Source of the DNA: Octopus vulgaris
Lineage: Eukaryota
Direction: 5' to 3'
Assembly: GCA_951406725.2 (NCBI GenBank)
Contig: OX597817.1
Coordinates: 130,386,001 to 130,450,000 of the forward strand
DNA length: 64,000 nt
Shown here: one piece after another, positions 14,251 to 46,126 of the stretch
Layout of the letters: each line of letters starts with the position of its first letter
How positions within the stretch are numbered: the stretch's first letter is position 1
Made by a program: the position numbers and the translations under genes
The notes under the pieces: model-generated
The model's input: the letters and a program-made list of their open reading frames with translations, nothing else
Told to the model about the DNA's origin: nothing
Databases searched by the model: none

Positions 14251-14878
14251 CGCTCTGTACTCCTACTTCTAGTAGCAAAAAGTAGATATTGATCCATTAG
14301 TGTCTCCATGTTGTCAAGGAACGATCAAATATCAATGCCAGGAAACTTCATATAAAATATCAAATTCCTGATTACCGTTGCACACAGAGGTTGGAGAGGG
14401 ATCTCCTTCAATATCTCACTATTGCCTTTTTTATATTTCTTTCATTTTTCTTCTCTGTTTTTTTTTTTATTCCTTTCGCATATTTGTCGATCGCTTCGAT
14501 TTAAATTCTTCGCATTCAATTTTATGTGCGTGCCTGCGTGCGCGAGTGCGTGCGTGAGTGCGTACACGAGTGTGTATGTGAGTGCGTGAGTAAATGTGTG
14601 TGTGTGTATGTGTTGAGGGAAATGTCTAATGAATGTGTGTATAAAAATGTGCGTGCATAATGTGTTGAGAGATGCATCTGGGTATCTGTTGTGCATGTAT
14701 AGTGTACTTACCTATGTAGTCGAATACGTAGTATGCAGACGTGTATGTGTGTTTAGAGAGAGAGAGTGATTATATATATGTATGTATATATATATATATA
14801 TATAAGAATAAATGTTTTTATATATAAAGAACGTGAAATACAGGAAGGGACGAACACGGAACACAGACAAATCATTCG

Positions 14879-14963
14879 AAGCCTTCAATCTTCAGTCAGA
14901 CACCGAATCATCATAGCAAATTTCGGCTGTTCAATTCTGATATTTGCTCCAACTCGGCCAGCC
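14879..14963 (-). ncRNA. Candidate non-circularly permuted hammerhead ribozyme (copy A)
   Basis: GGCUG-G-CCGAGUU-GG-AGCAAAU-A^UCAGA-AUUGAA-CAGCC-GAA-AUUUGCU-AUGAU-GAUUCGG-UG-UCUGA-CUGAAGA-UUGAA-GGCUU. Helix III is 7 bp, helix I is 5 bp, and the cores CUGAAGA, GAAA and AUA are intact. Confidence 0.65.
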
Positions 14964-15570
14964 CCAAGAAAAAAACTAAGCTGTAAGCATTAGATTTCTT
15001 GGTAGAAGACAGGAATGTGAACGCACGAGACGGATGTAAATACAAGAGACGAAAACGAAATTGAAAACAGTAATGAATAAACAAAATATAACGGTGGTTG
15101 TCTTACGACTTTAGACCAAATGAGACAAAAACAACAACAACATAGCAGCTGGCGTAGAAATAATTACCGTTTCGGTAGAGGGGACACATGTTGGTCGAGA
15201 TACGATCGCCAACAGAATGGTTAAGAAGCAGCAGGTTGCAGGAGAGAGAGAGAAAGAGAGACAGAGAGAGAGGGAATCAAAGAGGGTGGAAGGCAGGGGA
15301 CAGAATCAGTGACCAAGAGAAAAGGAGAAAGAAGGGATTAAGGAGGATGGGAGGAAGAGGGGGAAGAATCGGAGGGCGCCAAAATAGTTTGGTAAAGAAG
15401 CAATGGCGGGTAGGAAAGACAAAGTGTATAGAAGTCGTGCAGGGTTTAAAATTGGACAAACAAACGGGGGGGTGCACGTAACGCCGCAATAATATAAGAA
15501 TAAATGTTTTTATATATAAAGAACGTGAAATACAGGAAGGGACGAACACGGAACACAGACAAATCATTCG

Positions 15571-15655
15571 AAGCCTTCAATCTTCAGTCAGACACCGAAT
15601 CATCATAGCAAATTTCGGCTGTTCAATTCTGATATTTGCTCCAACTCGGCCAGCC
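15571..15655 (-). ncRNA. Candidate non-circularly permuted hammerhead ribozyme (copy B)
   Basis: Identical to 14879-14963, offset by 692 nt. Confidence 0.65.
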
Positions 15656-15680
15656 CCAAGAAAAAAACTAAGCTGTAAGC

Positions 15681-15733
<53 letters not shown>

Positions 15734-32260: not shown

Positions 32261-32582
32261 AATCAAAATAAGCAACAAGAATAACTTCGGTAATTTGGTA
32301 CGATCGTTTCACGCTACATCATTTTATTAAATGTTGTGTCACAACAGTTTTAAAATGCTAAGCACTCATCAGCCATTAATAGAGGTTTTCCATTAATACA
32401 TAATTTTCATATCAAAATTATATATAATTATATGAAAATTATGTATTAATGGAAAACCTCTATTAATGGCTGATGAGTGCTCAGCATTTTAAAACTGTTG
32501 TAATACTTACAACATTTAATAAAATGATGTAGCGTGAAACGATCGTGCCAAATTACCGAAGTAATTCTTGTTACTTATTTTG

Positions 32583-39676: not shown

Positions 39677-39992
39677 AATCCAAGAAAGTAAGGAAGGAAA
39701 CAAATAAAACACCAACTACGAACGTTTCATAGTTAAGCGATGGTTATTACATAAGCTGTAACATACACAAAACCAACTTAGTTAATCTTCAGATCTTATT
39801 ACCTATGAGTCGTTTACATTGATAGTTCGTTTGTTCGTCTCACGCGATAATGTAAACAACTTATCGATTATAAGGCCTGAAGATTAGCTTAGCTGATTCT
39901 GTGTATGTTACAATTTATATGACAACCATCACTTTGCAATGAAACGTTCGTAGTCCGTATTTTACCTGTTCCACTCTTTACTTTCTTCGATT
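39677..39992. mobile_element. Older palindromic PLE-like element with HHR in both arms
   Basis: Diverged arms ~39677-39820 and ~39849-39992. GGC-CUGAAGA (39877)...GAA-ACGUUCGU-A-GUC (39941-39955) is mirrored at 39716-39792. Confidence 0.7.
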
Positions 39993-40145
39993 ATATATAT
40001 ATATCGTTTCAGCCATTTGACTGCAGCCATGCTGGAGCACTATTTTGAAGGATTCGTGTAATGGTTTCGAATTTTGGCAAAAGGCCAGCAATTCCATTGA
40101 CTCCAGGGTTCAACAGGTACTTACTTTATCGACTCCGAAAGAATT

Positions 40146-41258
40146 AAATCTGAGCTAAGAGCATTAAATATTTTGGGAGAAAGCAAGCGAATGTGTACGA
40201 CAACAACGACAAAAGAAATAATAATTTTCTCCGTTTTTCGTTTTTTTTTTGTTTTTTGTTTTTGTTGTACACATTCGCTAGCTTTCTTCCAAAATATTTA
40301 ATGATCTTAGCATAGATTTTTGGGGCCAGCCAGATTTGAACAGTCTCAAGTATAAACGGCCGAAATTGTAAGGATAATCTGGAAGCTTGAGAGAAGGCCA
40401 CCAATGGCTCACCCTTGTTTTTTTCCTGTCCGTCTTTTTGTTGTTTTTCCTGTCCGACTTCGTATAGTCAATCTGTCCGGATGTTTTATTGTCGTCTGTT
40501 GCGTTCTTGTTCTATTTTTTGGATTCATATATACATATAGCGGCGACTTTTTTACTCCTTCTTTTAGTCTCCCTCATACTTTTTTCTTTCTTTCTTTCCT
40601 TGCTCCCCTTCTCTCACATTTCTTGGCCTTCTCTTTCTTTAATCTACCTATTTTTCATTGCTTATCTCCTTTGTACCTTCTCTATGGTCCTTTTGACTTT
40701 TTCTCACTTTCTTGTTCTCCCCCTAAATCTTCAATCCCTCTGCCACCTACCTCTATCCTTTCCTTCCACATGATCAGTGTTCGGCCAAGCATGATCTTTC
40801 ATTCTTGACTCGCCTGCCAGACTCGAAACATCTCATTTCTGTCTCCTGACTTTCATCTCTTTCTTCATCAATGTTCCTGCCTCAATGCTTTCAGTCCACA
40901 CACGCCAGCTCAACTTGATTCGTCTCTATTAGTCGAAAGACACCTGCTGTTATTTTTTTGTTTGTATTTGTAATTGAGTAACATTTCCTCCATTTTTTCG
41001 TATTTTTTTGTGTATTTTTGTCTTTGTTGTCGCTTGCTTTTTCCAAAAATATTTAATACTCTTGACTTAAATTTTTGCGGCCAGCCAGATTTGAAGAGTT
41101 TCAAGTGTAACTGGCCGAAACTGTAAGGATAACCTGGAAACTTGACTGATGAGAGAAGGCCACAAATGGACCACCCTTGTTTTTGCCTGTCCGTCTTCGT
41201 ATCGTCTGTCTGTCCGGATGTTTTATTGTCGCCTGTTGTATTCTTGTTCCATTTTGGC
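40146..41258 (+). mobile_element. PLE-like element: 5' inversion plus tandem terminal repeats (~755-bp period), related to 14801-15683
   Basis: 40146-40205 is an inverted copy of 40262-40319. ~40225-40522 repeats at ~40985-41258. Both repeats contain the permuted HHR motif. Confidence 0.75.
41079..41162 (+). ncRNA. Candidate non-circularly permuted hammerhead (decayed; sister copy at 40324-40400)
   Basis: Two-copy consensus: GGCCAG-CCAGAUU-UGA-ACAGU-C^UCAAGU-GUAA-CUGGCC-GAA-ACUGU-AAGGAU-AAUCUGG-AA-ACUUGA-CUGAUGA-GAGAA-GGCCA. Confidence 0.6.
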
Positions 41259-45200: not shown

Positions 45201-46118
45201 GTTTAAATATTTGTTGTGCAAGATTTTTTATGTGAAGTCGTGTGTTGAAACAGATATTGTTATATTTCGGAATGGTCATATTGCCAGTTTAGCCAATAAA
45301 AACACACGCACTATATATTTGGTGTTATTTTGCTTCAGTGATATTTATTTTTTACATTAATCTTAATCTTATTTCGGCCAAAGTTCTTTCGTCACACTCC
45401 TGTGACCGCATCAGTGGTCCTTTGTTTTCTTCTCACTTACTTGTGTCTCTCCTTACTAACCGTCAGCCATTTTGTATTTCTATTGTATGTCTTCATTTGC
45501 GCATGCTTATATCTCTATGTGCGTCTATGTTTATTTAGTGTGTGTGGGGGGGGTGCCTGTAATATTTGTATCTTCTGGTTATATACATTTTTGTAATTTG
45601 TATTTTGTTTTTGTTGTTGTTGCTTTTGTTCTAATTTTGTTCATGTGTTTACATCCACCCATTATTATCATTACATATTGTTGTTATACATACATACAAG
45701 CATATGTAATGATAATAATGGGTGGATGTAAACACATGAACAAAATTAGAACAAAAGCAATAACAACAAAAACAAAATACAAATTACAAAAATGTATATA
45801 ACCAGAAGATACAAATATTACAGGCATCCCCCACACACACACTAAATAAACATAGACGCACATAGAGATATAAGCATGCGCAAATGAAGACATACAATAG
45901 AAATACAAAATGGCTGACGGTTAGTAAGGAGAGACACAAGTAAGTGAGAAGAAAACAAAGGACCACTGATGCGGTCACAGGAGTGTGACGAAAGAACTTT
46001 GGCCGAAATAAGATTAAGATTAATGTAAAAAATAAATATCACTGAAGCAAAATAACACCAAATATATAGTGCGTGTGTTTTTATTGGCTAAACTGGCAAT
46101 ATGACCATTCCGAAATAT

Positions 46119-46126
<8 letters not shown>
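45200..46126. mobile_element. Large palindromic PLE-like element (~425-bp arms 45254-45678 and 45702-46126, plus a 54-bp unpaired tail) in (TA)n
   Basis: Near-perfect inverted arms, which also produce mirror-image ORFs in the track. An HHR motif lies at 45960-46004 (+) and 45376-45420 (-). Confidence 0.85.

Follow-up and report, generated by a model that had tools for sequence, protein, structure and literature searches.

An RNA structure that is real and under selection is carried by a Penelope-mobilized, retrozyme-like repeat family in the Octopus vulgaris genome, and this structure most likely works like a hammerhead. We consider it probable that the family is a non-autonomous Penelope-type group with units of 670–860 nt, which carries a hammerhead of new connectivity and moves by the mechanism proposed below. 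The window analyzed, a microsatellite-rich stretch of 64,000 nt (G000:C4:130386001-130450000) of a 2.8-Gb genome in 227 contigs, contains two of its members. Their motif has the order IIa-Ext5'-IIIb-NUH-Ib-IIb-GAAA-IIIa-Ext3'-Ia-CUGAnGA. All core elements of a hammerhead are conserved in it at the level of sequence, in the order S-G-C. The core is predicted to be opened between A9 and G10.1, with strand IIa located upstream of the cleavage site and not after CUGAnGA. Among small ribozymes, none has been studied more thoroughly than the hammerhead, in which helix II is assumed to follow the CUGAnGA strand without interruption. The S-G-C order itself is already published as type SGC; the novelty is the upstream helix II strand, which splits the CUGAnGA block.

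The element of subfamily B (40146-41256) is a non-coding retroelement copy with head-to-head arms. Self-BLAST against the reverse complement, together with the sequence, delimited an inverted 5'-truncated arm at 40146..40225 on the minus strand, which ends about 26 nt short of the predicted cleavage site and adjoins a truncated SINE-like repeat. The self-complementarity of the inversion (40146-40319) was 77% by self-BLAST. The SINE-like repeat (39990-40145) has several partial matches within the window and is interrupted where the inverted arm starts. The main arm (40224..41256, plus strand) is non-coding, contains 69% C+T, and comprises about 1.3 tandem units; its repeats 40224-40518 and 40983-41255 are 75% alike in a gapped comparison. 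Its fixed 3' end lies about 156 nt past the second predicted cut, and the same endpoint was found in other subfamily B copies. Elsewhere in the window, a 431-nt inverted repeat (45254-46126, 99% perfect, 11-nt spacer) and a long near-perfect hairpin (32340-32502) possibly represent fold-back insertions or MITEs.

The first motif copy of this element (40324..40390, plus strand) is dead. Strands IIa (40324-29), Ext5' (40330-36), and IIIb (40340-44) precede the GUC triplet with its site at 40345/40346, and Ib (40346-51), IIb (40356-61), GAAA (40362), IIIa (40365-69), Ext3' (40376-82), and Ia (40385-90) follow. As the sequence-only reading had noticed, GUC is kept at 40345, but the 7-nt CUGAUGA is missing between two TGA repeats; helix II has four of six positions paired. 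The second copy (41079..41152, plus strand) is damaged, with one mismatch in helix III and one in Ext. It consists of IIa (41079-84), Ext5' (41085-91), IIIb (41095-99), the site at 41100/41101, Ib (41101-06), IIb (41111-16), GAAA (41117), IIIa (41120-24), Ext3' (41131-37), Ia (41140-45), and CUGAUGA (41146-52). Here the core at 41146 is intact but the triplet at 41100 is GUU, again in agreement with that reading. Damage in both copies does not extend to the subfamily, since the majority sequence of subfamily B has GUC and an intact CUGAnGA.

The sister element, a young copy of subfamily A (14800..15687, minus strand), is inserted within (TA)n and consists of a 692-nt unit plus 196 nt. This 3' 196-nt part has 99–100% identity to other genomic copies. 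Both of its motifs are intact. In the 3' copy (14889..14963), IIa (14963-59), Ext5' (14957-51), and IIIb (14948-42) are followed by an AUA site at 14941/14940, Ib, IIb (14929-25), GAAA (14924), IIIa (14921-15), Ext3' (14909-03), Ia, and CUGAAGA (14895-89); the 5' copy (15581..15655) also has an AUA site, at 15633/15632. The helices are GGCUG/CAGCC (II), CCGAGUU/GAUUCGG (Ext), AGCAAAU/AUUUGCU (III), and UCAGA/UCUGA (I). All helices and motifs quoted in the sequence-only reading were present at their places in both elements, but the set quoted for the 41-kb element was a mosaic of its copies 1 and 2. The mosaic helices correspond to the majority letters of 38 subfamily B motif copies, except for one helix II position with a U/C split.

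By plain BLAST, the 41-kb and 14.8-kb elements are barely similar (best E 0.003). Whole units of seven copies from five subfamilies could nevertheless be aligned along their full length, and the blocks common to them were ACGCCAGCT, GTCGRAAGACA, and one block upstream of the motif. In the 41-kb element, the first two are located at 40902..40910 and 40932..40942 on the plus strand and are conserved across subfamilies; each element contains a single occurrence of either block, and the rest of the window contains none. That the two elements share them had been seen in the sequence-only reading. GTCGRAAGACA could form a GNRA-type hairpin. A further block upstream of helix II, CUAAU-GCU-NNN-AGC-UUAG (about 40297-40316 in the window, and 14995-14976 on the minus strand), was seen in all subfamilies and could fold into a small hairpin, the 3-nt loop of which varies. 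The block CGAAUG-ACCCG, 11 nt past CUGAnGA, is likewise conserved. On the contrary, NNGAAGGC, which had been listed among the conserved parts, is not universal, and one subfamily, with 988 pattern matches, mostly has WAGAAAAC there. This spacer lies outside the conserved fold.

The core pattern ending in GAAGG had 3,776 exact matches in the genome and the reversed pattern used as a control had none; therefore, the motif is not a chance occurrence. A disjoint pattern forbidding GG at that place yielded 988 exact matches vs 13 for its control. The CUGAnGA box was built into both search patterns, and it was also the majority sequence in 38 copies collected by DNA similarity. A first look with the 41-kb motif gave 2,075 candidates, the best 40 of which scored 81%–88% identity (self excluded), while the 14.8-kb motif gave 1,837 candidates with 99–100% identity among the best 40. 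Subfamily B is thus old and its sister A is young. The 40.1–41.3 kb element is an old, decayed member of the family, and its value lies in the covariation that it provides for the intact subfamilies.

At least eight groups could be distinguished among the sampled copies (A, B, B3, C, D/E, F, H, and I). A tree built from flanks outside the helices had three main clades among 20 rows; two picked loci gave no row, and one row labeled D belongs to another subfamily. The proposal of a family with two or more subfamilies was therefore borne out, but of the proposed unit lengths of about 692 and 755 nt, the latter is peculiar to the 41-kb copy: motif spacing in other B tandems is about 670–800 nt, and A units are 672–724 nt long. 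Across the family, units of 670–860 nt are non-coding, indel-rich, and composed of 67%–71% pyrimidine, with one hammerhead motif per unit and up to four motif copies consecutively in tandem arrays. The family is non-autonomous; no long ORF was common to the 138 loci, and no ORF with reverse transcriptase (RT) and GIY-YIG domains was found inside the units. At one sampled locus, the second motif has ACCAU/AUGGU as helix III and a helix II rich in A/U, and it represents yet another subfamily or variant.

The core was assessed by an alignment-free parse of 97 motif copies. Among the 74 copies with well-formed helices I and III, 71 had an NUH triplet, and the distance from H17 to G12 was 17 nt in 58 of 60. 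The pair U16.1-A15.1 was present in 24/24 and 36/38 rows of two alignments, and G10.1-C11.1 in 22/24 and 33/38. Position H17 is only C or A in the subfamily majorities, and the two largest subfamilies have an AUC cleavage triplet, which is active, yet rare in natural hammerheads.

The pairings proposed from the two window elements held in these larger alignments. The 24-row set was restricted to copies that could be aligned free of register errors; of its 550 cells, 94.5% were paired, and both sides had changed in 8 of 23 pairs. Its covariation was 0.291, compared with at most 0.072 in slid controls, and was reached in 0 of 500 shuffles, which ignore relatedness between copies. Helix I was 96.5% paired; the Ext helix, which joins the outer ends of stems I and II, was 92.3% paired with a two-sided change in two of seven pairs. 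The 38-row set, covering more subfamilies, had 87.2% of cells paired, two-sided changes in 11 of 22 pairs, and a covariation of 0.358 vs at most 0.090 in slid controls; its Ext columns are misaligned for F and H rows, making some counts unreliable, and two helix III pairs were omitted. Both sets were hand-picked from full-length copies. Helix II occurs in three states, GGCUG/CAGCC, GGCCA/UGGCC, and GGGCA/UGCCC, and the helix III states include CAAU, CAGU, CUGU, and CCGU, each with a matching partner. On the flank tree, helix II and III states fall on different clades.

Common descent or chance could in principle produce such pairings as a by-product, since the copies are related and related sequences can outscore shuffles, and the number of independent changes is modest, about a dozen by our count. 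This explanation has a negligible probability because each of the four helices has pairs changed on both sides, such changes are spread over several clades, slid controls were 2–7 times lower in pairing, and the core motifs are in the exact hammerhead register. The selected structure is predicted to be a double pseudoknot, in which Ext and helix III make up one long hairpin; helix II arises by pairing of the hairpin loop with the 5' flank, and helix I by pairing of the loop with the 3' flank. Nested folding gave unremarkable z-scores (−1.82 to +1.62) and recovered Ext and helix III in four of five sense sequences, missing them in window copy 2; this is expected because two of the four helices cross. 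The Rfam hammerhead model was not among all six matches of each targeted scan and was absent from the best 150 of 345 matches of the window scan. Such a miss is also expected, since the Rfam models are nested and their order is fixed.

Two segments could serve as strand IIa, the upstream strand and a GGC located five bases after CUGAnGA. The choice between them decides whether the motif is an ordinary type SGC hammerhead with a 5-nt insertion after CUGAnGA. In that arrangement, the downstream GGC(C/U) would form helix II, and the upstream strand would act as a competitor or a switch. The 3' segment can indeed pair over 4–5 bp in subfamilies A, B, C, and D/E, with one two-sided change (GC in 16 and AU in 15 at one pair). 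However, this alternative is only 66.7% paired in the 24-row set and 71.1% in the 38-row set, and in the GGG/CCC lineages it is unpaired at one position in 15 of 38 rows, the third pair being C·C in B3, F, and H. In subfamily I, detected by the 988-match pattern, the downstream segment is AAAAC and the upstream strand is still complementary, with a mean duplex energy of −5.6 kcal/mol vs −0.2 kcal/mol downstream, and the ordinary arrangement is largely refuted thereby. The downstream partner for helix II fails in four subfamilies, while the upstream strand tracks IIb through all three helix II states. In addition, Ext is continuous with the 5' strand, as the joining helix of type SGC is with IIa. 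An ordinary SGC hammerhead with an insertion is therefore very unlikely.

With the upstream strand as the helix II partner, G10.1 does not lie within 0–2 nt of A9, and the block Ia-CUGAnGA-IIa is interrupted. Ext is formed by the sequence that continues IIa on its 3' side and the one that precedes Ia on its 5' side, and it takes the role of the stem I–II joining helix of type SGC. The motif therefore corresponds to an SGC hammerhead whose natural ends have been connected and whose strand has been opened at A9/G10.1 instead. A fifth helix closing the A9/G10.1 break was considered and was unsupported (−4.0 to −5.7 kcal/mol, register not conserved).

The available text of Eckert 2023 (PMC10085705) describes hammerheads as blocks S, G, and C and counts six orders, because block C (Ia-CUGAnGA-IIa) is assumed to be uninterruptible; no alignment in that text has more than 1–2 nt at A9/G10.1. 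Type SGC (HRIMA-1) was validated there and reported from metatranscriptomes only, with none in the genomes of known organisms. The octopus motif shares with it the S-G-C order, a short linker from stem I to stem II, and a helix joining the outer ends of these stems. It differs in that block C is split with IIa upstream of S, a layout outside the six orders given in the parts of Eckert 2023 available, and in that both strands connect Ext with helix III. Moreover, type SGC was only metatranscriptomic in that account, whereas here thousands of copies reside in an animal retroelement. According to the sections accessible, an extra nucleotide at A9/G10.1 is tolerated in the CChMVd plus strand (PMC3705267) and usual in Penelope minimal hammerheads (PMC4209133). 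These hammerheads are also interrupted at A9/G10.1, but by one nucleotide, whereas in the octopus motif the strand is fully broken, and in a circular unit the whole 600-nt body would sit at this position. A full break at A9/G10.1 had no tested precedent in the open-access PMC and bioRxiv texts consulted, and no description of the split motif was found in open-access PMC papers and bioRxiv preprints. Hammerhead variants with extra helices or other permutations are stated to exist (PMC13725137); the portion of Forgia, cited there, that was available contained nothing relevant.

Outside the genome, viral contigs had no core-pattern matches, and none of the 21 metagenome matches formed the helices well (5–7 of 10 pairs at best). 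Two of the four scanned metagenome matches adjoin Rfam matches to group II intron domains D1-D4, and most of the remaining ones share that sequence. The 5' region of group II introns matches GAAA...CUGAUGA...GAAGG by chance and is a false-positive class for permuted-hammerhead searches.

The insertions carry the marks listed for Penelope elements in the available part of Craig et al. 2021 (PMC8557442), namely 5' truncation, partial tandems, inverted 5' copies, a 30–40 nt tail at one end, and (TA)n. In the octopus family, we found 5' truncation, partial tandems, an inverted 5' copy, an optional tail of about 30 nt, a (TA)n target, and a fixed 3' end. The interpretation of inversion plus tandem repeats as Penelope architecture, made from the window, therefore holds genome-wide. 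In a sample of 32 subfamily A arms, selected for the presence of the 3' 196 nt, 27 share an endpoint, located about 140 nt 3' of the predicted cut, and the other five extend about 30 nt beyond it; (TA)n follows 31 of the 32. Two subfamily A loci are arranged head to head by inversion, and in these only one arm bears the tail. The longest insertion was 2,430 nt, with up to 3.5 tandem units. The portion of Frangieh et al. 2024 (PMC11167929) consulted attributes the tail to two internal RT start sites. These marks and a fixed internal RT start are shared with Hydra-clade Penelope-like elements as far as those papers describe them, but the split-motif element has no RT/GIY-YIG ORF.

The 5' ends of the copies pile up at the predicted cut. 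From the first 100 matches to the pattern on contig C1, we took those of subfamilies A, C, and D/E and scored each insertion at its 5'-most motif, setting aside five copies for internal deletions or mismatches (one at +4). Ends at −3 to +13 of the predicted cut were found in 24 of 71 copies, vs 2 at −23 to −4 (P = 8e-7), and in subfamily C alone in 17 of 55 vs 2 (P = 1e-4). The truncation rate further 3' (15 per 100 copies within 61 nt, counted by eye) predicts 2.9 such ends for all 71 copies and 2.3 for subfamily C. The ends do not coincide at one base but cover 0 to +13, and their positions may be influenced by TA microhomology. In the simplest interpretation, cDNA synthesis reached the 5' end of a cleaved RNA and stopped there, and the pile-up would then be an indirect sign of cleavage in vivo.

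Alternatively, the fold could be conserved without being catalytic, serving as a recognition signal for the Penelope RT/endonuclease, and the pile-up could reflect RT stalling or microhomology. In accordance with this, the split core is without precedent in the literature found, the motif lies at a fixed distance from the RT start, and cleavage is dispensable for in vitro insertion of a lizard Penelope element, as stated in the available text of PMC11167929. However, the conserved letters are exactly those of the catalytic core, with H17 only C or A in the subfamily majorities, and an RT moving 3' to 5' meets the helices about 40 nt before the pile-up, while the drop sits at the predicted cut. 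We regard a non-catalytic role as unlikely and lean, with moderate confidence, towards a seventh natural hammerhead topology: a four-helix double pseudoknot broken at A9/G10.1, which would be active in animal cells, drive a circular-RNA retroelement family with thousands of copies, and leave a trace of its cut site where the genomic insertions begin.

The following mechanism is proposed for this split hammerhead. Tandem transcripts would self-cleave after NUH to give unit-length RNAs, some of which would be circularized. A GIY-YIG Penelope-like RT/endonuclease, for which an abundant and intact Hydra-like family is the best candidate, would nick (TA)n, and cDNA synthesis would start inside the RNA, on the 3' side of the cut and about 140–160 nt away from it; the tail would come from another start point, 30 nt beyond the first. 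Short copies, about one-third of those sampled, would arise where a linear, cleaved template lets synthesis run only as far as the cut, while on a circular or uncleaved template it would continue for up to 3.5 units. Since the RT start is internal to the cut-to-cut monomer, copies crossing the cut would need a template of the latter kind.

The active form could also be a domain-swapped dimer or be assembled from strands of neighboring tandem units, so that cleavage is regulated by tandem context. Covariation cannot distinguish pairing in cis from pairing in trans, tandem copies are common, the monomer requires two crossing helices, and dimeric activity is described for Penelope and other animal hammerheads in the available text of PMC4209133. 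However, the helices are all 5–7 bp long and the palindromic helix III, the usual mark of dimers in the same text, is absent. The fixed 17-nt spacing and fixed linker lengths suit a compact monomer, and the published SGC ribozymes cleave co-transcriptionally from single-copy constructs, according to the accessible part of PMC10085705. A dimeric or context-dependent form is accordingly doubtful, with a small but real chance.

Copies linked to an RT/GIY-YIG ORF had been suggested as a route to the autonomous partner. The search revealed a Hydra-like family with 17,488 candidates, whose intact ORFs are about 980 aa long and contain RWK, DKT, and CxCx5C motifs. The family (e.g., G000:C19:23215000-23224500) is apparently young; pLTRs and inversions are present, as is a long insert rich in Asn. 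The element runs out in (TA)n and carries, near its 3' end, its own type I hammerhead of canonical order; therefore, it is not the source of the split motif. Helix II of this hammerhead is unusually long (about 60 nt), and its helix III is palindromic. The split motif was absent from 29 of 30 Hydra-like 3' regions; the exception, at G000:C28:548840, is a chimera of a Hydra-like 3' UTR with a subfamily A copy. No autonomous partner bearing the motif was found. In the region G000:C28:545486-550767, two different Penelope-like elements flank this subfamily A copy, one of them fused in the middle of its 3' UTR, and the arrangement is consistent with fusion by a template switch. Judging by one chimera in 30 loci and the shared target, the Hydra-like family is a plausible enzyme donor for the split-hammerhead elements.

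Comparison of 3' ends with the Hydra-like family beat the shuffles in one of four subfamilies (0/500, inflated by the TA tail), the others giving 73, 100, and 30 of 500. This similarity was dropped, as part of it proved to be the Hydra-like element's own helix II. A second Penelope-like family has a CxxxCxxC linker and 5,595 candidates. The initial 1,300 nt of its 3' region do not contain CUGAnGA, and the split-motif element had no match to this region; a near-palindromic GUGAUGAGUG(G/A)UCACUC was seen there instead. Neither protein matched Pfam, and thus the Hydra-clade label is based on inspection of motifs.

Among known systems, the octopus family resembles metazoan non-LTR retrozymes, which are described in the available parts of PMC7229834 and the bioRxiv preprint 10.64898/2026.07.22.740005 as low-GC, non-coding tandem units with one hammerhead each, dispersed as monomers and multimers, and for which a Penelope origin and a circular RNA intermediate were proposed. 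Their hammerhead, as given in those parts, is of type I, while the octopus motif has the order S-G-C and not C-G-S, and the descriptors used there would miss the split motif. The octopus units are longer than the 150–450 bp of Cervera and de la Pena 2020 (PMC7229834) and within the 51–972 bp of Li et al. 2026 (10.64898/2026.07.22.740005), and the available text of neither source mentions cephalopods. The motif thus lacks both the contiguity of hammerheads and type SGC and the type I feature of retrozymes.

A natural covarying family with a broken strand would revise the count of hammerhead permutations. Within the open-access literature searched, it would also give the non-circular permutations their first host genome and a biological role. 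The motif is about 75 nt long, and near-identical intact copies exist. If the interpretation is true, a class of genomic hammerheads would have escaped descriptor searches, and some of the Naiad 'half-core' cases in the accessible part of PMC8557442 possibly belong to it. The pile-up of 5' ends bears on whether ribozyme cleavage shapes Penelope-type transposition in vivo and offers a way of detecting ribozyme activity in retroelements from sequence.
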